In this document: positions 450 through 46,358 of the stretch, in pieces | How positions within the stretch are numbered: position 1 is the first letter of the stretch | How the letters are laid out: every line of letters begins with the position of its first letter | Translations under genes and position numbers: made by a program | The notes under the pieces: model-generated | What the model was told of the DNA's origin: nothing | Seen by the model: only the letters and a program-made list of their open reading frames with translations | The model's database searches: none | Assembly (NCBI GenBank): GCA_964413995.1 | Contig: CAYPUF010000001.1 | Span: forward strand, 37,403 to 87,386 | Reading direction: 5' to 3' | Length of the DNA: 49,984 bases | From: an uncultured Gammaproteobacteria bacterium | GTDB lineage: Bacteria; Patescibacteriota; Patescibacteriia; 2-12-FULL-60-25

Positions 450-1793
450 ATGAAATTCGGCGACCCGATCAACACCGTCATCCAAGACTTCGACGAAAAA
501 GGCCGCGGATTCTCCCCTCCCTACGCCATCCCCTTTACCGCGCCCGGCGACGAGATCGAAGCGACGCTCGTGAAACGCGACAAAGGCGTGAAAATCGGAC
601 GCCTGTCGAACGTCGTGAAACGCGCTCCGGACCGGATCGACGCGCCCTGTCCGCATGCAGGGGTGTGCGGCGGCTGCCTCTGGCAGCATCTCGCCTACGA
701 CGCGCAGTTGCGTTTCAAGAAACACTTGATCAACCGCGCGTTCGAACGCGCGGGACACGATGAGCGCGTCGGCGACGTGATGCCCTCGCCGGAAACTTTT
801 TATTATCGCAATCGGATGGATTACGTGGTCGGCTGGAAAGGAGAGGTTGGCCTGAAGGAATACGGCTCATGGAACCGCTATCTCGATCTTTCCACGTGCC
901 TCTTGCTCGACAAGGAAACGCCCGCCATCCTCCAAACCGTCCGCGACCTGATGCGCGAACTCAAGATCGAGCCGTGGGACGCGAAAAAGTACACCGGCGA
1001 TCTCCGTTATTGCGTGATCCGCCTCGGCAAGAACACCGGCGAACGCATGATCACGCTCGTTGTGAGCGACTTGGCCCGGCTTGTCGCTCATCGTTCATCG
1101 CTCATCGAACGTCTTTCACCCTTCTGCAGCTCCCTCTACCTCGCGGAGAACCCCGAGATCACCGACCTGTCTCAAGGCAAAACGCTCGAACTCCTTCACG
1201 GAAACGAATTCCTCACCGAGGAAGTCAACGGCATACGCTACGCCGTCCATCCGAATTCGTTTTTCCAAACGAACACCGTCATGGCCGCAAAACTGCAGGA
1301 CGCCGTTCTGAATGCCGTGGGGGCGCCATTCATGGCGCCCGGGCGTGATAAATCATGCCCCTACAAAATCCTGGATTTGTATTGCGGCCTCGGCTTCTTC
1401 GGCATCGCCGCGGCAAAACGCGGCGCGGACGTGTACGGCCACGAGCTCGACGCACCCGCGATCGAACTTGCGAAGAAAAACGCGGACGCGAACGGCGTCG
1501 GTCATCGTTGCCGCTTCGGCGCGGGCCCGACCGAAGCGCTAGACTGGTCCGCGGAACATCCCGACGCCGTCATCGTGGATCCGCCCCGCGCGGGACTCCA
1601 CCCGAAGGCGCTCAAGGCGCTGCTCGAAAACGCGCCGCCCCGCATCGTGTACGTTTCGTGCAATTACCATCGCCTCGTGGATGAACTAAAACAACTCAAG
1701 ACGAAATACCGCGTCGAATCGCTCGAGGCGCTCGATCTCTTCCCTCAAACGCCGCATGTGGAGGTGGTCGCCTCGCTCATCAAACAAGCATGA
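450..1793 (+). CDS. 23S rRNA/tRNA (uracil-5)-methyltransferase, TrmA/RlmD (RumA) family
   Basis: Cys cluster CPHAGVCGGCLWQH, FFQTN, SAM motif ILDLYCGLGFFG, DPPRAGL, YVSCN, DLFPQTPHVE. Start moved to ATG 450 (MKFGDP); the ORF-track start at 393 lies in the terminator/repeat. Confidence 0.9.
   Translation: MKFGDPINTVIQDFDEKGRGFSPPYAIPFTAPGDEIEATLVKRDKGVKIGRLSNVVKRAPDRIDAPCPHAGVCGGCLWQHLAYDAQLRFKKHLINRAFERAGHDERVGDVMPSPETFYYRNRMDYVVGWKGEVGLKEYGSWNRYLDLSTCLLLDKETPAILQTVRDLMRELKIEPWDAKKYTGDLRYCVIRLGKNTGERMITLVVSDLARLVAHRSSLIERLSPFCSSLYLAENPEITDLSQGKTLELLHGNEFLTEEVNGIRYAVHPNSFFQTNTVMAAKLQDAVLNAVGAPFMAPGRDKSCPYKILDLYCGLGFFGIAAAKRGADVYGHELDAPAIELAKKNADANGVGHRCRFGAGPTEALDWSAEHPDAVIVDPPRAGLHPKALKALLENAPPRIVYVSCNYHRLVDELKQLKTKYRVESLEALDLFPQTPHVEVVASLIKQA
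1317..1364 (+). repeat. in-frame double-hairpin palindromic element, copy 1 (48 nt)
   Basis: GGGCGCCA-ttca-TGGCGCCC (1321-1340) plus GGGCGTGA-taaa-TCATGCCC (1341-1360). Translated as VGAPFMAPGRDKSCPY. Homologous to 41702-41755. Confidence 0.8.
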
Positions 1794-3587: not shown

Positions 3588-4538
3588 TCAAGGACGTTTC
3601 AACGTGACGTTATTGACTTCGTAGCCGAAGAGGCGATCCATGACGGATGCGCCGTGTCCGGCCGCGACATCCATGCCGGCAGCAAGCGGGTTTAGCGTCA
3701 CCTTGAGGATCATCGGGTTCTGACGGCTATTGAGGACGATCACCTCGCCGAACCAGTTGCGCGCTCGGATCGCGGAAACGATCTTCTTTTCGCCGTTGAC
3801 CGTCAGCGGCCATTCGATGCGTTCCGCTTCGGCCTCCAGCAAGGTCAGGTCCTTATATGCCTCTTCCTGGGAAGCCTGTTCCCGGAGGACGGCGAGCGCC
3901 TCCTTCAGCTCGGCGACGTTTTTGACCGCCTGGTTCAGCGCGTCGTCGAACACGCCGAGATTCAGGATAGTCTTGTTCGTTTTTGACAGCTCCATGAACG
4001 CGTCGTCCGACAGCCAGATCCCCGTCTTTTCGCCGAGCATGTCATGCGTGCCCTCGGGCCAATACGCCGGAAGGAACGCCGTGTGGGACGTACGCAGGTT
4101 GATCCCCACGAGCCGTCCCTCGGTCGTGACCCGTTCCGTCGCGACCGTCGGCGGCGGAAGCTCCGTATCGGGATCGCGTTGCCGCTCGGCGTCGTATTCC
4201 GCACGCAGCTTTTTGGAAGACTCGGTTTCGCGCGTGGTCTCGAGCGTCCAGTCAAGTTCGGCCACGTGCGTCGGCGCGAATCGCTTGATCGTCACCTTCC
4301 GGACGCCGTCCATGCTCTGAAGCAGATCGGGGATGAAGGCCCCGAAGCCAAGCACGGTCTGGCGGATTTCAAACGTATCGCCTGGGATGAATTGGATCGC
4401 CTCGGCCGCTTCGACGGCGGCGGTCTTTTGCTCGGGGGTGGAGCCTCCGTCCCGGGGCCCGGACCAGGCGCAACCAGCGCCTGCAAGGGCGAGGGCCAAA
4501 CCGAGAATGAGGAGCAGTCGCGTACGGGAAGCGTGCAT
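3588..4538 (-). CDS. putative lipoprotein, function unknown
   Basis: N-terminus MHASRTRLLLILGLALALAGAGC has a signal peptide and lipobox-like Cys. No catalytic motif recognised. Confidence 0.65.
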   Translation of the reverse strand: MHASRTRLLLILGLALALAGAGCAWSGPRDGGSTPEQKTAAVEAAEAIQFIPGDTFEIRQTVLGFGAFIPDLLQSMDGVRKVTIKRFAPTHVAELDWTLETTRETESSKKLRAEYDAERQRDPDTELPPPTVATERVTTEGRLVGINLRTSHTAFLPAYWPEGTHDMLGEKTGIWLSDDAFMELSKTNKTILNLGVFDDALNQAVKNVAELKEALAVLREQASQEEAYKDLTLLEAEAERIEWPLTVNGEKKIVSAIRARNWFGEVIVLNSRQNPMILKVTLNPLAAGMDVAAGHGASVMDRLFGYEVNNVTLKRP

Positions 4539-4647
4539 AGGTTACGTCGCGACATCTTTACGGTCCGCGAGACGAAAGTCAAACCGCCCACATCTTCGCA
4601 TTTACAACGCGTCCGTTTTGCCCTATCGTCAGGGCATTCTCCACGGT

Positions 4648-6027
4648 ATGGCGCCCACGAAGAACGCGCGGCCGGCTCTGCGCATCGCGCTCGTCGTCGG
4701 CATGGCCCTCCTGACGCAAATCGGCTACGGCTGGCTGCTCCAAGCATCCGGAACGGAGGTGTTTTCGCTCCTCGGAGACGGTCCGAGTTACCTGCAAACC
4801 GCCCAAAACGTACTCGAACACGGACTCTGGTCCGCCGACCCGGCAGCGGATGCGCGGCCGGATAATTTCCGTGCACCGATCTACCCGCTTTTGATCGCCG
4901 GCCTGCTCCGGGCCGGCGGGGCGTTTGACATCCTCTTCGCCCTGCAGGCCTTGGCCGTCGCCGCGACGGCGGGCCTGGCCTACGGATACGGCCGCGCGCT
5001 TTGGTCCGAGCGCACCGGCCTCGTCGCGGGCCTGGTCCTTGCGATCGATCCGTTTCTCGCGTCCCGCTTCGTCGCGAAGGCGCTCATGACCGAGGCGTTC
5101 GCGCTTCCGCTCATGCTGGTCGGGTTCGGGAGTCTCGCGCTGTTCGTGCGGCGATCCGACGGAAGGTCATTCCTCCTCGCGACGCTGGCGTTCGGTCTCG
5201 GCGCGAATCTCAAGCCGCAATTCATTTTCTTCCTGCTCCTCTCCTATGCGGCGATCTTCTTCGCGAAACGGATTGCCGCGCGCACCATCATCACCTCGTT
5301 CGTCATCTCGGGCGCGCTCCTGCTGCCATGGCTGTCCTATAACTTTATCGGCCTGCGCGTCTTCCAGTACTCGTCGGTGTCCGATACGAACTTGTTCGAC
5401 GTGGGGTACCGGTTCCAGCATTGGCGGACGAAAGGCGCGGACCCGTTCTTCAATGAAAACTATATCGCGGCCGGCTCCGCGCTGGTCGGAGCCGAAAACA
5501 CCATGCAGCTCTTTGAACCGCACAAGGCGAAACGCTTGGCGGCTAACGGTCGTGGCTGGATCCTGTCGGCACCGGCGGCGTTTCTCTGGTTCCATACGAC
5601 GCGCATCCCGCGCACGTTCTATCATGACACGACGATCGACACGCTCTACGAGGATTTCGGATGGTTCCCGAGCCTGCGCGGAGCCGATCCTACCGCGTTG
5701 GCAAAAGATCTCGTGCTCTTCCGCTGGAATGACGCCATGCGCCAGATCCGCGAGCATCCCGCCGCGCTGCTCGCGTTCGGGTTCCAGCTCCTGGTCCTGC
5801 TGCTCTCGCTTCTCGCGCTGGGGAATGCCTTCATCCGGCGAGCCGTCACGGGCGAATGGTCGTCCGTTCCCTTGCTCTGGACGGGACTCATGCTCGCGTA
5901 CGGTTTTCTCGTTTCACCGATGGGCCTGCACCGCTACCGCGTGCCGATCGAGCCGATGCTGCTCTTGCTCGCCGTTGACAGCGTCATCGTCTTGACGCGT
6001 CCGGCACGCCACCGGAAACGCGTATGA
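4648..6027 (+). CDS. polytopic membrane glycosyltransferase, GT-C fold (GT39/ArnT-like)
   Basis: Multiple TM helices. The N-terminal loop (GDGPSYLQTA...DNFRAPIYPLLIAGL) is typical of the PMT/ArnT family. Start set to ATG 4648; the upstream part of ORF 4333 is antisense to the lipoprotein gene. Confidence 0.65.
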   Translation: MAPTKNARPALRIALVVGMALLTQIGYGWLLQASGTEVFSLLGDGPSYLQTAQNVLEHGLWSADPAADARPDNFRAPIYPLLIAGLLRAGGAFDILFALQALAVAATAGLAYGYGRALWSERTGLVAGLVLAIDPFLASRFVAKALMTEAFALPLMLVGFGSLALFVRRSDGRSFLLATLAFGLGANLKPQFIFFLLLSYAAIFFAKRIAARTIITSFVISGALLLPWLSYNFIGLRVFQYSSVSDTNLFDVGYRFQHWRTKGADPFFNENYIAAGSALVGAENTMQLFEPHKAKRLAANGRGWILSAPAAFLWFHTTRIPRTFYHDTTIDTLYEDFGWFPSLRGADPTALAKDLVLFRWNDAMRQIREHPAALLAFGFQLLVLLLSLLALGNAFIRRAVTGEWSSVPLLWTGLMLAYGFLVSPMGLHRYRVPIEPMLLLLAVDSVIVLTRPARHRKRV

Positions 6028-7568
6028 CCTCCGCTTGGAAAAAACACACGCTCGCGCTCGCGGTGGTCCTGCTGCCGATCGGCACGTATCTCGTTGCCAA
6101 GGCGCAAGACCCGCGCGGATGGGACCAGTGGGGTTTCGGGTCCGCGCAAACCGTGCTCACCGTGCGGCATTGGGCGCGCGACGGCATGATCGCCCACAAA
6201 TTCCTGTTCCTGCCTTCGGGATATCATCCCGCGATCGCGTTTCTCGACCGTCCCGAGTTCCGCTTCCTCGCCGACGGAACCAAGACGGGCGAGATCATCG
6301 GCAACCGGCTGTATTACACGCATTATCCGGCCGGATACCTCATCCCCTACGGCCTGCTCGCCAAACTCGGTGTGATCGAACGTGCGGGGTTGCGCGTCGC
6401 CGCTATCCTCTTCTCGATGATGGGCCTCGCGTTCTTCTACGGCTTTGTCTTCCTGTTCTCGAAACGCAACCACTGGATCGCGGCGATCGCGACCTTCTAT
6501 TACGCGACGACGACCGTGTTTCTGGGATACGCGGACTCGCTCGCGAACCAGCCCATCGACGATCTGTTCCGAAACGCGATCCTGTTCATCAGCCTCTATC
6601 GTTTTTCTGAAGCGAAGGACGAGATCGGGAAAAAGCGCCTCAATATTGCTACGTGGATCTTGTACTTCATCCTGGCGAGCAGTTCGTACGACTCAACATT
6701 CTTCGTCTTTATCTGGCTGTGCGGCTTGGACGTCATCGAACACAGGCGCCTACGGCTCGTCCGGCCTCTCGGCTGGGCACTGGCGCCGATTCTCGCCTTC
6801 GGGGTGCAGATCGCGCAGAACACGTGGTATCTCGGCGTCGCGGACATGATGCGGGATTTCTACGGCGCGTTCGCCTTCCGCTCCTCCGAAGCGCCCGCCG
6901 CGCTCGGCCGGCTCCCTCCGCTCGTGAAAAACGCTTCGGCCGCGCTTTCGCTCACCGGGTATCTCACGGGCCTGCGCGCACGCTTCGCGCTCCCGATCGC
7001 CGCGCTGCTCGTCTTCGCGGCCTGGCGTGCGAAGCTCGTGGACAGGACGCGTACGCGCTTGCTTGCCATCCTCGCCGTTGCCGGTATGACGTATCCGTTC
7101 CTGCTTCCCGTCGTCGGCACCTTCGGATACCAGGGACGCCAGCTCGCGCCGGCGCTCGTGACACTGCTCGCGATCGCGACCTATGTCCTGGCCACGAAAT
7201 GGAAAGGGATGAAATGGTCGGGCGTCCTGCTCGCGGCCCCGCTCGCCCTCCTGTGGGTCGCGCATTTCTGGGCTTTCGCCCGGTTCCTGAACGACGATCC
7301 GCAAAACGCCTTCACGCGCGAGCAGGTCGCGGCCTGGACCTCGATCGGGGCGCGCACATCGTCCACGGACATCCTGGTGTCGCCGTCGCTTGGTTCGGAA
7401 AAATTCTTCATCCAGGCGTACGCCGACCGGCTCATCCTCTCGTTTGACGATCCCGACACGATCGCCGAATACGCGCCGAAGATCCGCGATGCCTCCGGCG
7501 GACGCGTGCTGCTGCTGACGCAAGACGCGTTATCGGGAGATGTATTGATTGAGACTCTTCAGCCATGA
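6024..7568 (+). CDS. polytopic membrane protein, probable GT-C-like partner
   Basis: ATGA overlap with the previous gene. About 12 predicted TM segments; YYTHYPAGYLIPYGLL loop. Family not firmly recognised. Confidence 0.6.
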   Translation: MTSAWKKHTLALAVVLLPIGTYLVAKAQDPRGWDQWGFGSAQTVLTVRHWARDGMIAHKFLFLPSGYHPAIAFLDRPEFRFLADGTKTGEIIGNRLYYTHYPAGYLIPYGLLAKLGVIERAGLRVAAILFSMMGLAFFYGFVFLFSKRNHWIAAIATFYYATTTVFLGYADSLANQPIDDLFRNAILFISLYRFSEAKDEIGKKRLNIATWILYFILASSSYDSTFFVFIWLCGLDVIEHRRLRLVRPLGWALAPILAFGVQIAQNTWYLGVADMMRDFYGAFAFRSSEAPAALGRLPPLVKNASAALSLTGYLTGLRARFALPIAALLVFAAWRAKLVDRTRTRLLAILAVAGMTYPFLLPVVGTFGYQGRQLAPALVTLLAIATYVLATKWKGMKWSGVLLAAPLALLWVAHFWAFARFLNDDPQNAFTREQVAAWTSIGARTSSTDILVSPSLGSEKFFIQAYADRLILSFDDPDTIAEYAPKIRDASGGRVLLLTQDALSGDVLIETLQP

Positions 7569-8923: not shown

Positions 8924-9018
8924 TGCGCAACGCGTAATGCATAACGAAAACGGCCAATCGGCCGCTTTTCGTTTTTTACGTTTTTTTTGCGCTTCGCTCT
9001 ATGCGTGACGCTTTACGC
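8918..9018. repeat. heptamer-word dyad with central terminator hairpin
   Basis: Left arm: gcgtaat gcgcaac gcgtaat gcataac. Centre: ACGAAAACGGCC-aatc-GGCCGcTTTTCGT (8944-8972) plus a T-run. Right arm: gcttcgc tctatgc gtgacgc tttacgc. Both convergent genes stop inside the arms. Confidence 0.75.
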
Positions 9019-9264
9019 CATGGCCTTTTTCTTTGATCCTGCCAGCGCTTCTTCAAGCAGGTTCTTGTTCCATCCGACGATCACATGGCCGTCGACGTCG
9101 ATGACGGGCACGCCCATCTGGCCGGAGAGTTTCACCATCTCCTGCGCGGCCTGCGAATCCGCGGACACGTCGATGTCTTCAAACTCGACCCCTTTTTCCT
9201 TCAGGTAGTCTTTGGTGAGCTTGCAGTACGGACACGTCGGCGTTGAATACACTTTCACATTCAT
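9013..9264 (-). CDS. glutaredoxin-like protein (NrdH/YruB type)
   Basis: MNVKVYSTPTCPYCKLTKDYLKEKGVEFEDIDV carries the CPYC thioredoxin-fold motif. 83 aa. The longer ORF-track version (to 9654) is antisense to pepA. Confidence 0.8.
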   Translation of the reverse strand: MNVKVYSTPTCPYCKLTKDYLKEKGVEFEDIDVSADSQAAQEMVKLSGQMGVPVIDVDGHVIVGWNKNLLEEALAGSKKKAMA

Positions 9265-22156: not shown

Positions 22157-22185
22157 AGTATAGTTTCGTCGCATCGACATGACAA
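22157..22185 (-). promoter_or_regulatory. sigma70-type promoter placing the TSS at or near the ATG
   Basis: Minus strand: TTGTCA (22185-22180), 17 nt, TATACT (22162-22157), 6 nt, ATG (22150). Confidence 0.5.
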
Positions 22186-22213
22186 AAACGCTCGCCGATC
22201 GGCGAGCGTTTTT
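22184..22213. terminator. perfect bidirectional terminator hairpin
   Basis: AAAAACGCTCGCC-gatc-GGCGAGCGTTTTT, lying 4 nt after the stop of the CxxC gene. Confidence 0.75.
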
Positions 22214-22217
22214 GCGT

Positions 22218-23806: not shown

Positions 23807-25298
<1,492 letters not shown>

Positions 25299-29792: not shown

Positions 29793-29862
29793 GCGTAGAG
29801 TGAAGAGCGTAGGGTGTAGAGTCGGAATCTTCGCTCTATGCTCTATGCTCTATGCTCTTCAT
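29793..29862. repeat. ten in-phase heptamers forming a dyad (atpZ-atpB spacer)
   Basis: gcgtaga gtgaaga gcgtagg gtgtaga gtcggaa | tcttcgc tctatgc tctatgc tctatgc tcttcat. The right arm encodes the last 8 residues and stop of atpZ. Confidence 0.8.
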
Positions 29863-30051
29863 ATCGGCTTTCAACCATCGCACCATCGCAAACTGCGCGA
29901 CCGGGAACGAAACGAAAAACAAGATGATCAGCGCGACCGGCGACGAATCGAAGAGCCGATCGATCCCCCATCCGATCGCGACGAACACGGCGATCGAAAC
30001 AAGCGTCACGCCGACGACGATCCCCGCTCTCCGCCACGTAAACAGCTTCAT
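29836..30051 (-). CDS. AtpZ/AtpI-like small membrane protein
   Basis: 71 aa with two TM segments; GWGIDRLFDSSP loop is typical of the ATPase_gene1 family. First gene of the atp operon. Confidence 0.65.
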   Translation of the reverse strand: MKLFTWRRAGIVVGVTLVSIAVFVAIGWGIDRLFDSSPVALIILFFVSFPVAQFAMVRWLKADMKSIEHRA

Positions 30052-30617: not shown

Positions 30618-31252
30618 ACCGTTTCCATGCGTTCGCGATGTAGTGTGATGAGATCGTTCACGATCAAGCCTGCGCGGCGCACGGCCTCCGCCGGACCCAG
30701 CGAGGGCTCGGCCGCAAGCAGCGCTTCGGCGGCGCGCCAGAGCCACTCCTTGGGTTGGCGATGGTGGTGATGCGCGACCAGCGCCGCCTGTTCGGGCGAA
30801 ACGCCCTGCGCCTGCCAGTTCCGCATGACGGATAGGCCGTGCAGCATCGCGGCGCGCAAGTCCTCTTTTTCCGGATACGCGCCATGCCCGTCCGGGCGCA
30901 CAACCGCCCGATCACGGACGCGTTCCGTGACAACATACTCCAGCGAACCGATGCGGCGCGTCTCCGTGCGGAATGCCGGATCGCCCACGATCGCGTCAAC
31001 ATTGAACCCCTCGACCGCTTTGGCCGGCACGCGCGCGGCCTCGGCTTCCAGCCCGAGCCCGATCTCGCCGTCTTCCTCTTCCAGCCCGATCCCGGTCCCC
31101 TTGAGCAGGCGGTTCGCGCGCTTCCGGAGCTCCGCGCGCAGCCGTTCGCGCTCCTTGGATTCACGCGCCTCGGCCACAGCACGAATGTCGCGCTCTGACC
31201 CGTTTGTCTCGCTCTTCGCTCTTCGCTCTGCACTCTGCGCTTCTCTCATCAT
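30614..31252 (-). CDS. hypothetical charged protein (up to 212 aa)
   Basis: Starts 2 nt after the ftsX stop. The first 16 codons or so are six in-phase heptamer words (31204-31245), so the true start may be downstream (for example the GTG giving VAEARE). Contains an HHHH run. Confidence 0.45.
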   Translation of the reverse strand: MMREAQSAERRAKSETNGSERDIRAVAEARESKERERLRAELRKRANRLLKGTGIGLEEEDGEIGLGLEAEAARVPAKAVEGFNVDAIVGDPAFRTETRRIGSLEYVVTERVRDRAVVRPDGHGAYPEKEDLRAAMLHGLSVMRNWQAQGVSPEQAALVAHHHHRQPKEWLWRAAEALLAAEPSLGPAEAVRRAGLIVNDLITLHRERMETV

Positions 31253-35675: not shown

Positions 35676-35740
35676 AACGTGAAGGTGAAGAGTGAAACGC
35701 CTGACGCTACGCTCTACGCGTTACGCTCTACGCTTTTTTT
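35672..35740. repeat. two tandem heptamer arrays plus T7
   Basis: gtgaaac gtgaagg (g)tgaaga gtgaaac, then gctacgc tctacgc gttacgc tctacgc, then ttttttt. The arms are not complementary. Confidence 0.65.
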
Positions 35741-35748
35741 GTTATACT
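35740..35748 (+). promoter_or_regulatory. extended -10 (TGtTATACT), 8 nt upstream of the ATG
   Basis: TGT TATACT ttttcccg ATG (35757). No SD. Confidence 0.45.
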
Positions 35749-40978: not shown

Positions 40979-41899
40979 ATGGACAAAACCCTCGGCATGT
41001 GGATTTCCGGCGCCGCGCAGGCGCTGGAAGCGATCGCGGAAGACCGCGAGCAGGCCTGGATCGAGGCAAGAAGGCTCGCGGCATTCGGTTTGAAAAAACC
41101 GGAATCCTGGCTCGTGGCGCATACGGACAAGACGCTGACAAAAAGACAGACGGACGCGCTCGCCCCGTTACGGAAACGTAGGCTCAAACGCGAGCCCATG
41201 GAATATCTCCTCGGTTCGGCCGTTTTCTTCGGCCGGGAATTCGCCGTCGACAAGCACGTCCTGATTCCGCGCCCGGAGACCGAGGATCTTGTCGTCGAAG
41301 CGTTGAAGGAGATCCGGCCGGGCGATCTCGTCGTAGAGATCGGGACCGGGTCGGGCGCGATCGCCATCACCGTCGCGGCCGAACGCCCCGGCGTGACGGT
41401 GTTCACAAGCGATACCGACGCGGCCGCGCTCTCGGTCGCAAGAAAAAACGCGCGGCGACTCGCGCCGGGGCGCATCCGCTTCTTCCACGGATCGCTGTTC
41501 CATCCCGCACTGATCCGTGCGATTCGCACCGCAGGAGCAAGGCGCGCCTTGCCCCTACGCATCCACACGCTCGCCAATCTCCCCTATCTTCCGTTCTCCG
41601 ACCGGAAAACCATGCCCGTCTCGGTCGTGAAATACGAACCCGCCAAGGCGCTCTTCGCGAAAGATGATGGGATGGAATTGAACAAAAAATTGATGGAACA
41701 GGTAGGGGCGCAATTCATTGCGCCCCCGAGCGGGCGTGATAAATCACGCCCCTACATGGCCATTCTCCTCGAACTCGACCCGCCGCAATCAAAAAAACTC
41801 TCCGCCTTTGCGAAGAGCCTCTTTCCCGATGCCGATGTTTCCATCATCCGCGACCGATGCGGGAGAGAAAGAATTTTACGCGTAACGCGTAGAGCATGA
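40979..41899 (+). CDS. prmC: peptide chain release factor N5-glutamine methyltransferase (PrmC/HemK)
   Basis: EPMEYLLGSAVFFGREF, LIPRPETE, EIGTGSGAI, and a catalytic tetrad present as NLPY. Carries palindromic insert(s). Confidence 0.85.
   Translation: MDKTLGMWISGAAQALEAIAEDREQAWIEARRLAAFGLKKPESWLVAHTDKTLTKRQTDALAPLRKRRLKREPMEYLLGSAVFFGREFAVDKHVLIPRPETEDLVVEALKEIRPGDLVVEIGTGSGAIAITVAAERPGVTVFTSDTDAAALSVARKNARRLAPGRIRFFHGSLFHPALIRAIRTAGARRALPLRIHTLANLPYLPFSDRKTMPVSVVKYEPAKALFAKDDGMELNKKLMEQVGAQFIAPPSGRDKSRPYMAILLELDPPQSKKLSAFAKSLFPDADVSIIRDRCGRERILRVTRRA
41702..41755 (+). repeat. in-frame double-hairpin palindromic element, copy 2 (54 nt)
   Basis: GTAGGGGCG...CGCCCCTAC 9-bp terminal inverted repeats. 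GGGGCGCAA-ttca-TTGCGCCCC and GGGCGTGA-taaa-TCACGCCC hairpins. Translated as VGAQFIAPPSGRDKSRPY. Confidence 0.85.
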
Positions 41900-41945
41900 C
41901 GCGCAACGCCGACGCTACGCCTTTACGCTCTATGCTCTGCGCTTC
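41875..41945. repeat. heptamer-word imperfect dyad between convergent genes
   Basis: gcgtaac gcgtaga gcatgac gcgcaac ... gctacgc ctttacg ctctatg ctctgcg. The prmC stop lies inside the left arm. Confidence 0.6.
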
Positions 41946-43039
41946 TACCCCTCAAACCCTCCGAACACGAGATCGTTCGTCGTGACGTGGATCCACGTCC
42001 GGCCGCGCGTGAACAGGAATTCGGACCCGTCGCCGGCTTCGAATTTCATCGGTTTGCCCGGCGCGCGGCTCCAGCGCAGGATGAACTTCTTGCCGTCGCG
42101 ATAGGCCACGGCCTCGCCGCTGCCGGTCGTGCGGATGCGCAGCCGGCCGATCTCGTCGAGTACCTGCTCTTCCGTTTTGATCACGATGACGTTTTCGGAC
42201 TCGACCGGCGTTCCGTCGCGGTCGACCTGCGGACGGCCGGCCTGGCTACGCACGTACACGTTCCGCTCGCGATCGTATTCCCAGGAGACGCTGAACGAAC
42301 CACCGTACGGCACGCGGATCGTATCCCCGTTGCCGCGGTCCGTGGATGATGCCGCATCGATAAAATGCCACGCCTCGACCGCGCGCGTCGAAGTCGCGTT
42401 TTTGCGTTCGAGCACCGCGTCCATTCGTTCACGGTCCGTGTAGGTGTTATGCGGGGCCGCACGGCGGCGGTCGCGCCAGAACGATGTGCCGTACGCGAAT
42501 TCGTTCACATCCACAAACCCGTCGAGCGACTTGATCAGGTCGAGCGCTTCCGGACTGCCGCCGACATGGAACAGTGACGCGTTCCAGCCACGCGCCCACT
42601 CAACGTAATACGGACGCGCGCTGCGCACGGGGCCGACCTCGTCGAGCGTCGTCGTCGCGTCGTAGAACGCGAGAAAGCGCGTGATCCCGCCCTCCACGGG
42701 CGCCTCGATTACGAGCTGGGCCGCCGCGAGTCCGGACACCGGGCGCGCATCCGGATGGTTCTCGACGATCACGGCACGCGGCGCGTATGCCTCCTCGCCG
42801 GCGGACACGAGCACGCCGTCGAGGTAGCGCGGCACAAGGCCGCTTTCCGCGGCCGTCCGCTCCTCCTCGGCCGGCCCGTTCGCAACGGCCGGCGCGGAGC
42901 GCAATCCGCCCGCGATCACGTACCAAAACAGGCCGATCGAAACGGCGAGCAACAAAACAGCCCCGCCGGCGAGCGGCCAGCGGAACCGTTTGGCGTGGGA
43001 CATGACGGTCGCCTGCGCCTTGGCAAGCCACGTATCCAT
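41945..43039 (-). CDS. DUF3048 domain protein (anchored)
   Basis: VENHPDARPVSGLAAA...EGGITRFLAF is typical of the DUF3048 N-terminal domain. Has a TM anchor. Start at 43039 or 43078. Confidence 0.72.
   Translation of the reverse strand: MDTWLAKAQATVMSHAKRFRWPLAGGAVLLLAVSIGLFWYVIAGGLRSAPAVANGPAEEERTAAESGLVPRYLDGVLVSAGEEAYAPRAVIVENHPDARPVSGLAAAQLVIEAPVEGGITRFLAFYDATTTLDEVGPVRSARPYYVEWARGWNASLFHVGGSPEALDLIKSLDGFVDVNEFAYGTSFWRDRRRAAPHNTYTDRERMDAVLERKNATSTRAVEAWHFIDAASSTDRGNGDTIRVPYGGSFSVSWEYDRERNVYVRSQAGRPQVDRDGTPVESENVIVIKTEEQVLDEIGRLRIRTTGSGEAVAYRDGKKFILRWSRAPGKPMKFEAGDGSEFLFTRGRTWIHVTTNDLVFGGFEG

Positions 43040-44290: not shown

Positions 44291-46358
<2,068 letters not shown>

Follow-up and report, generated by a model that had tools for sequence, protein, structure and literature searches.

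An inverted pair of palindromes in prmC

The window analysed here is the whole 49,984-nucleotide stretch of a contig from an uncultured member of the Patescibacteria, a relative of Candidatus Uhrbacteria. At 40979-41899 on the plus strand it carries an intact prmC gene for a release-factor glutamine methyltransferase of 306 amino acids, identified by a TIGR03534 score of 191.8 bits and by its PrmC_N and MTS domains; the motifs GTGSG and NLPY are invariant across the 32 PrmC orthologues that we aligned. Inside this gene, at 41702-41755 (+), lies a 54-nt element, GTAGGGGCGCAATTCATTGCGCCCCCGAGCGGGCGTGATAAATCACGCCCCTAC, with the layout of a GTAG-type REP dimer of the HH heterodimer kind: two inverted REP units whose GTAG ends are outermost, together covering PrmC residues 242-259, VGAQFIAPPSGRDKSRPY. 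Unit A (41702-41725, plus strand, GTAGGGGCGCAATTCATTGCGCCC) consists of a GTAG head followed by a hairpin. After a 6-nt spacer, CCGAGC (41726-41731, plus strand), comes unit B (41732-41755, minus strand), which reads GTAGGGGCGTGATTTATCACGCCC on its own strand.

The two ends are exact 9-bp inverted copies of GTAGGGGCG, at 41702 (+) and 41747-41755 (-), and GTAG is found at both outer ends, at 41702 (+) and 41755 (-). Two perfect hairpins, at 41705-41726 (10-bp stem) and 41732-41751 (9-bp stem), have 2-nt loops, TC and AA (TT on the strand of unit B). The first-pass annotation of this DNA had described the same sequence, inverted ends and hairpins, and that description is accurate. On the strand of each head, unit A reads GTAG-GGGCG-CA-ATTCAT-TG-CGCCC and unit B GTAG-GGGCG-TG-ATTTAT-CA-CGCCC; their common 24-nt design is GTAG plus GGGCG-NN-ATTYAT-N'N'-CGCCC. 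They differ at five of 24 positions, four of which make up a two-base-pair swap that keeps both stems, and they fold as separate hairpins rather than as one long one. The element has a folding energy of -21.4 kcal/mol as single-stranded DNA, compared with -8.0 ± 1.8 for shuffled sequences (z = -7.3), and none of 200 shuffles folded as well. When the window was shuffled 100 times, neither hairpin sequence appeared, even at a tolerance of 3 mismatches.

Frame +0 of the element is open and reads VGAQFIAPPSGRDKSRPY, and each of the other five frames contains a stop, as the first-pass annotation had noted for this copy. The 6-nt spacer makes the length a multiple of three and places both units in open phases. 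Judging by the intact frame, the 54 nt would be translated as an 18-residue extension.

A second member of the same dimer family, copy 1, lies at 1317-1364 (+) in an RlmD-type gene, directly before the motif-I strand ILDLYCG. It is 48 nt long, has a 0-nt spacer and is read as VGAPFMAPGRDKSCPY. Its stem carries another swap, CC...GG, plus one G-T pair, and its head on one side is GTGG, a listed variant of the GTAG head (PMC3733652). Having GTG instead of GTA in the head gives this copy a second open frame (+0 and +1), so the single-frame constraint that had been proposed for both copies does not apply to it.

Other repeats occur in the window. Low-complexity motifs of the GCTCTACGC/TCTATGC type recur at 8991-9028, 29828-29865, 31213-31250, 35706-35743, 41922-41959 and 44564-44601; the one just downstream of prmC, the only one checked, is intergenic. 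The motif ACTGTTAACTGT is found at 1844, 27738 and 48647, and TTCTAGATTCTAG at 25202, 25290, 43876 and 47432. At 22183-22214 a perfect 32-nt palindrome, CAAAAACGCTCGCCGATCGGCGAGCGTTTTTG, is flanked by runs of A and T and looks like a two-way terminator.

Position of the insert in the protein

The insert sits between a helix and the strand preceding ILLELD. Alignments with solved HemK/PrmC structures stop at residue 239-241, directly before it; 4dzr gives the sole PDB alignment across the region, and it requires 9 gap positions. In an AlphaFold2 model of the protein (mean pLDDT 95), helix 233-247 runs through VGAQFI and is followed by a low-confidence loop (248-258) and a strand (259-265). Mean pLDDT is lowest, at 83 and 73, in the two ten-residue blocks over the insert (residues 241-260). 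In the model the insert lengthens the helix by about six residues and then forms a loop of about 11. The alignments and the model bear out the placement in a loop before the strand ILLELD that the first-pass annotation had given.

In Rossmann-type folds the ligand-binding face is the one formed by the C-terminal strand ends, which puts the N-terminal ends of β5 in PrmC and of β1 in RlmD on the opposite face. From what is general to this fold, the PrmC and RlmD inserts would both lie on the face opposite the ligand, and the PrmC insert would occupy a surface loop between helix αD and strand β5, away from the SAM pocket.

The same gene contains a second GTAG palindrome at 41529-41558 (-), GTAGGGGCAAGGCGCGCCTTGCTCC, which is single, partly decayed on one arm and read as TAGARRALPLR. 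Its intact 28-nt form, GTAGGGGCAAGGCGCGCCTTGCCCCTAC, occupies the same site in a related Uhrbacteria locus, L003 (10553-10580), and is found in that locus also beside the end of another gene (6468-6495). This site too varies among PrmC orthologues, others of which have inserts of the VGA.HAVPLQ type there.

Repeated occupation of the same loops in PrmC and RlmD

Across the 32 aligned orthologues, PrmC varies most in the segment that separates "LLxQ" from "LLEFDPPQ". A short loop is found at the insert site in most of them, and the insert peptide is absent from 30 of the 32. Besides the window, only P0012 (locus L001), a PrmC of 53% identity, has a peptide of the same type, RAQFIAPRAGRDKSLPY. 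Since the gene order prmC-DUF3048-L25-gyrB is conserved in L001, as it is in L003, P0012 is a true orthologue. The L001 and window elements are identical at 45 of 54 DNA positions (83%), compared with 56% for the rest of the gene, and the L001 gene has a GC content of 47-48%, against 60% for prmC of the window. By sequence, this pattern would reflect either an independent arrival of the L001 element or a constraint unrelated to the protein.

These comparisons bear on whether the peptide could be native to PrmC and functional there, as an ancestral loop with a chance palindrome. Its frame is intact and the protein models well, as that reading expects, but the peptide is missing from nearly all orthologues, its DNA is found again in another, unrelated window gene and between genes in many phyla, and the identity of the element far exceeds that of the gene around it. 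We give a native loop scarcely any credence. The earlier proposal that the element is an inserted repeat is upheld by the many orthologues without the peptide and by the hypervariability of the site.

We also looked for an empty prmC site in close relatives, which had been suggested as a check, and found no clean one among the orthologues compared. The closest relative, P0002 (L003, 82% identical), has a different and longer insert at the site; its 96-nt insert region folds at -24.6 kcal/mol, which 8 of 200 shuffles equalled or bettered (z = -1.9, not significant). When the insert of the window is removed on paper, an unusually short loop is left, implying that original loop residues were lost at insertion or that one element replaced another. 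The right junction is CTAC^AT in both the window and L001 (^ marks the junction), and the unrelated insert of L003 terminates at the same codon position. Still other peptides, such as WIPAFAGMT, are found at this site in other lineages and, on a reading of the peptides alone, seem to be other repeats in translation. A metagenome scan for alleles with and without the insert, made with the exact left flank of this site, gave no match.

The RlmD loop has a comparable history. Its orthologues mostly have an empty site, LPP-G^KILDLYCG, and at least five different GTAG-type inserts occur before ILDLYCG across Uhrbacteria lineages (orthologues P0122-P0162, loci L128-L131): VGAPFMAPGRDKSCPY in the window, VGADQRVGPGADTLVRPY in P0127, VGAGLAPAPGDHKGRPY in P0145, VGAQHAVPLQ in P0123 and VGAHGHAPTNPARPY in P0162. 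The right junction RPY^K-ILDLY is identical in the four lineages whose insert peptides end in RPY, and the three right junctions examined as DNA, those of the window, L129 and L131, all read CTAC^AA(A/G)AT; in L128, where the site is empty, the sequence is GGA^AAAATC. This repeated use of the same loops may reflect selection of permissive spots, a target preference or the replacement of one REP by another.

Neither the prmC copy, copy 1 nor any other junction examined has a visible target-site duplication, in agreement with the first-pass annotation for the prmC copy. A classical MITE derived from a DDE transposon, considered as a candidate for the element, was rejected: inverted ends are present, but the duplication is missing.

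The family outside the window

To follow the family beyond these genes we scanned one genome per species with the pattern GGGCGTGATAAATCANNCCC, in which two stem positions were left free and CTAC was not required. At least 120 stretches contained it, with 124 matches among those listed. The free positions were CG, which closes the stem, in 105 of these 124, and 88 of the 124 ended in CTAC even though it lies outside the pattern; where the free positions held other bases, a few matches inside ordinary genes (L006, L008, L081) look like chance. Judged by record title, the host MAGs belong to at least 10 phyla, and the 24-nt unit is usually exact. The titles include Chloroflexota, "Deltaproteobacteria"/Desulfobacterota, Myxococcota, Gamma-, Beta- and Alphaproteobacteria and Nitrospirota, and further Planctomycetia, Armatimonadota, Vampirovibrionales, Patescibacteria, WOR-3 and others. 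One Chloroflexia MAG contributes 17 tiles among the matches listed, and genomes of other phyla hold several copies, mostly intergenic.

Dimers were defined by a partner of the unit A type no more than 60 nt upstream, with 3 mismatches allowed. By this definition 33 of the 124 matches listed are dimers and 91 have no partner; the L001 copy and the two copies in the window likewise form dimers, inverted pairs of the kind that characterizes REPINs. Of the 33 dimers listed, 28 have the unit A 24-mer itself, with loop TC or TT, as their upstream partner. All but one of the 33 partner units have complementary bases at the free stem positions, in the variants CA/TG, CG/CG and TC/GA; the family also shows TG/CA and, in copy 1, CC/GG. 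Complementary changes of this kind separate GTAG sub-families. Spacers elsewhere are mostly 4 or 8 nt, giving elements of 52 or 56 nt, not multiples of three, and 29 of the 33 dimers listed lie outside long ORFs, with only four inside. A deltaproteobacterial his operon (L036) illustrates this arrangement: dimers at 2114-2162 and 2911-2959, in opposite orientations, occupy the short gaps that flank hisA, one between hisH and hisA and the other between hisA and hisF. Elsewhere, then, the element is mainly intergenic and found in both orientations, as one of the checks put forward for it had anticipated for intergenic copies.

Where units elsewhere are read within ORFs, a check against Pfam showed the ORFs to be genuine genes, encoding MnmG, Lgt, an amine-oxidase/HemY-like enzyme, a ComEA-like protein, a glycosyltransferase and an MmeI-type enzyme. 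The units are read in three phases, as VGAQFIAP and GRDKSRPY in the phase of the window, as RGAIHCA and GVINHAPT in the other sense phase, and as GVIYHAPT in antisense. The claim that the element is tolerated in only one orientation and phase thus holds for the prmC copy, with its 6-nt spacer, and fails for the family, in which a second sense phase and antisense readings occur in genes; a single open frame is not a family rule, and the open frames of a dimer vary with spacer length. The corresponding expectation that genic copies are confined to one orientation proved wrong. That both hosts in the window are methyltransferases had been remarked on as well, and we considered whether methyltransferase genes might be targeted; this was rejected on the unrelated enzymes that host the units elsewhere. 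The shared host type is probably a coincidence or a matter of permissive loops at N-terminal strand ends.

In the approximately 165 kb of Uhrbacteria DNA examined, we found three dimers of the family, all genic, and a few other GTAG palindromes. The units had no match in isolate plasmids and phages, and IMG/VR returned two stretches with identical sequence around the match; these searches lend no support to phages or plasmids as carriers.

Nearly all matches are in MAGs and none came from isolate plasmids or phages, as might be expected of an assembly or binning artefact, but the copies differ in sequence and flanks, their frames are intact, the L001 insert is present in independent assemblies of its gene (ENA and Logan), and copies are embedded in long contigs, among them a chromosome of 3.4 Mb and several-hundred-kb contigs. 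We regard the chance of an artefact as negligible.

The very high conservation of the unit across phyla could suggest a selected cis-acting signal in the nucleic acid, such as an mRNA stabilizer or RNase site, a transcription pause, or a gyrase or IHF site, with coding secondary. REPs have been reported as RNA or DNA signals (PMC3733652), and the G-T pair in the stem of copy 1 would be acceptable in RNA. Yet most PrmC and RlmD orthologues do without the element, different elements occupy the same loop, and a search of the region 41500-41960 against Rfam (E ≤ 10) returned chance matches only. Recognition by a transposase explains the conservation equally well, and we consider a cis-acting signal improbable.

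In the Chloroflexia MAG LS1_sbin.36 (L031, L064, L067, L068), tandem GAGGTTT repeats, with the variant GAGTTTT in L064, adjoin GTAG units within real genes, such as those for MnmG and a glycosyltransferase, and are translated as TSNLKPQTSNL. One loop can thus house several kinds of repeat.

Relation to known repeat classes

GTAG-tagged REPs were defined by Di Nocera, De Gregorio & Rocco (2013, BMC Genomics 14:522; PMC3733652), who described 24 families of GTAG repeats and, taking GTAG and CGTC repeats together, recorded tagged REPs from 8 phyla and upwards of 80 species. The GTAG repeats have an unpaired GTAG at one end, a body of 20-40 bp, a GC-rich stem of 6-13 bp and a loop that is often TY; sub-families differ by complementary stem changes, and copies are repeated many times per genome, mostly outside genes (PMC3733652). 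HH dimers, in which GTAG lies outside, are sometimes only 1-5 bp apart and are often heterodimers (PMC3733652). The same study reported REPs wholly within ORFs, over half being dimers or groups that encode 20-30 residues; these are most numerous in Opitutus terrae and in Rickettsia conorii (RPE-4, RPE-6), and in recB two Xanthomonas species carry different REPs at one site (PMC3733652).

The window element agrees with this description in its head, its stem, its TY loop, its closely spaced HH heterodimer and the presence of such dimers within ORFs; its 24-nt units, 9-10 bp stems and 2-nt loops correspond to the GTAG-REP body. As far as its sequence goes, it has every structural feature by which the class is recognized. 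The different inserts at the same PrmC and RlmD sites resemble the recB case, and peptides starting with VGA are listed in the supplement of that paper (PMC3733652). We therefore favor, as the probable explanation, that the element is a palindromic, non-autonomous repeat belonging to the GTAG-tagged REP super-family, one that has survived in frame in a loop of PrmC. As an intragenic GTAG-type REP dimer, a class to which the first-pass annotation had not assigned it, it is a new example of a phenomenon already published (PMC3733652). What differs is the hosts, here Patescibacteria and many uncultured phyla, and the genic location, which is the rule in our small Uhrbacteria sample and the exception in that study. 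GTAGGGGC and the unit peptides are absent from its main text and from those supplements that are in text form, a search that did not extend to the figure of family consensus sequences (PMC3733652). Literature searches with the literal hairpin sequences and the encoded peptides returned nothing, and those with the 9-mer ends primer lists only; as far as we found, such dimers have not been mentioned before in this lineage.

Three other systems invite comparison. In REPINs, two inverted REPs behave as a single non-autonomous unit whose mobilization, proposed to occur via a single-copy Y1 transposase, leaves no target duplication (Bertels & Rainey 2011, PMC3116915; Nunvar 2010, PMC2817692). The present element resembles them as an inverted pair of units that likewise has no target duplication, but its spacer is merely 0-8 nt, its units differ at five of 24 positions and fold separately, and no RAYT was found in the DNA searched. 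The Rickettsia RPEs are palindromic repeats that lie in frame in unrelated housekeeping genes and are tolerated as extra peptide; RPE-1, about 150 bp long, is described from Rickettsia only (Ogata 2000, as reviewed in PMC10969869). RPE-4 and RPE-6 are short and belong to the CGTC class, not to GTAG (PMC3733652). The element is like the RPEs in behavior without being one of them, being 54 nt long, against about 100-150 bp for the Rickettsia-specific families with their conserved peptides, of other sequence and in other phyla.

Double-hairpin elements of Allomyces mitochondria, described by Paquin, Laforest & Lang in 2000, are reportedly short, mobile and also found in frame in protein genes. 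Unlike the window element they are mitochondrial, of unrelated sequence and without a GTAG tag.

Candidate transposases

GTAG REPs are thought to be mobilized as single-stranded hairpins by REP-associated Y1 transposases. We found no Y1_Tnp in the window or in approximately 115 kb of related Uhrbacteria loci. All-against-all clustering of the ORFs of 120 loci revealed no gene family that travels with the element, and a search for genes bracketed by inverted REPs gave a single clean case, hisA of the his operon, which is not a transposase. Querying all ORFs with E. coli RayT gave one weak match, in a Planctomycetia locus (L104), which was confirmed as a Y1_Tnp and is the only one that we saw near a copy of the element. 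As a candidate for the cognate enzyme this protein (family P0241) was rejected, since its family is flanked by hairpins of the CCACCTCGTAGGTGG type and not by the present units. Its homologues are single-copy genes that stand between housekeeping genes in several phyla.

The genes of this Y1 family encode 220 amino acids and are 53-63% identical across Planctomycetia, Omnitrophota, Patescibacteria and others. On both sides of the genes (L132 at 3900-4760, L133, L139 and L140) there is a conserved hairpin CCACC(T/C)CG(T/G)(A/G)GGTGG, followed by GGTT. The family resembles an IS200-like unit that has been domesticated or become immobile and that carries its own ends.

The element might instead be a minimal derivative of the IS200/IS605 type, a palindrome-associated transposable element with LE and RE (left-end and right-end) hairpins, moved by an ordinary IS200 TnpA in place of a REP-associated transposase. 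Such a derivative would have two unlike hairpins and would lack a target duplication, as the element does, and Y1_Tnp genes exist in Patescibacteria (P0329). Its ends, on the other hand, are inverted copies of one GTAG-headed unit, in contrast to the asymmetric ends of IS200/IS605; single units are common, as the 91 of 124 listed matches without a partner attest; and the Y1 family examined has other flanking hairpins. An origin of this type strikes us as quite improbable.

A model for the prmC insertion

Returning to a GTAG-tagged REP as the preferred reading, the comparisons suggest that the element would have arrived in a surface loop of PrmC, between αD and β5. By analogy with its class, the units would be mobile as single-stranded DNA hairpins, cut and copied in trans by an HUH/Y1 transposase (RAYT/TnpA-REP); the missing target duplication fits this route, because the HUH/Y1 mechanism leaves none. 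The insert may then have persisted since its length is a multiple of three and it is open in the frame of its host, which would make it an 18-residue translated extension. The single open frame of the prmC copy would be a matter of survivorship, with copies that break an essential gene being lost, and a benefit to the host need not be assumed.

A more far-reaching reading is that one REP family, or an unseen transposase, has spread recently between the phyla, at least 10, in which the units occur, and that REPs home to or overwrite existing REPs. If true, a recent spread would follow from the usually identical 24-nt units in these phyla, including the reduced Patescibacteria, and homing or overwriting, as opposed to random landing and selection, from the different GTAG dimers that share the same loops and the same right junction. 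We think this rather unlikely.

Implications

The finding leaves the understanding of how REPs work unchanged. It extends the in-frame decoration of housekeeping enzymes by REPs to the Patescibacteria, and its less ordinary aspects are the width of the distribution of the family and the repeated occupation of the same loops. There are consequences for annotation, because REP inserts lower family scores, as with the 191.8 bits of this PrmC, just below the TIGR03534 cut-off of 199.1, and show up as spurious "variable regions" when CPR proteins are aligned. The finding also points to a single REP family whose phylogenetic range is unusually wide, and the reused loops offer a natural experiment on insertion-tolerant sites in Rossmann-fold enzymes and on REP-to-REP targeting.
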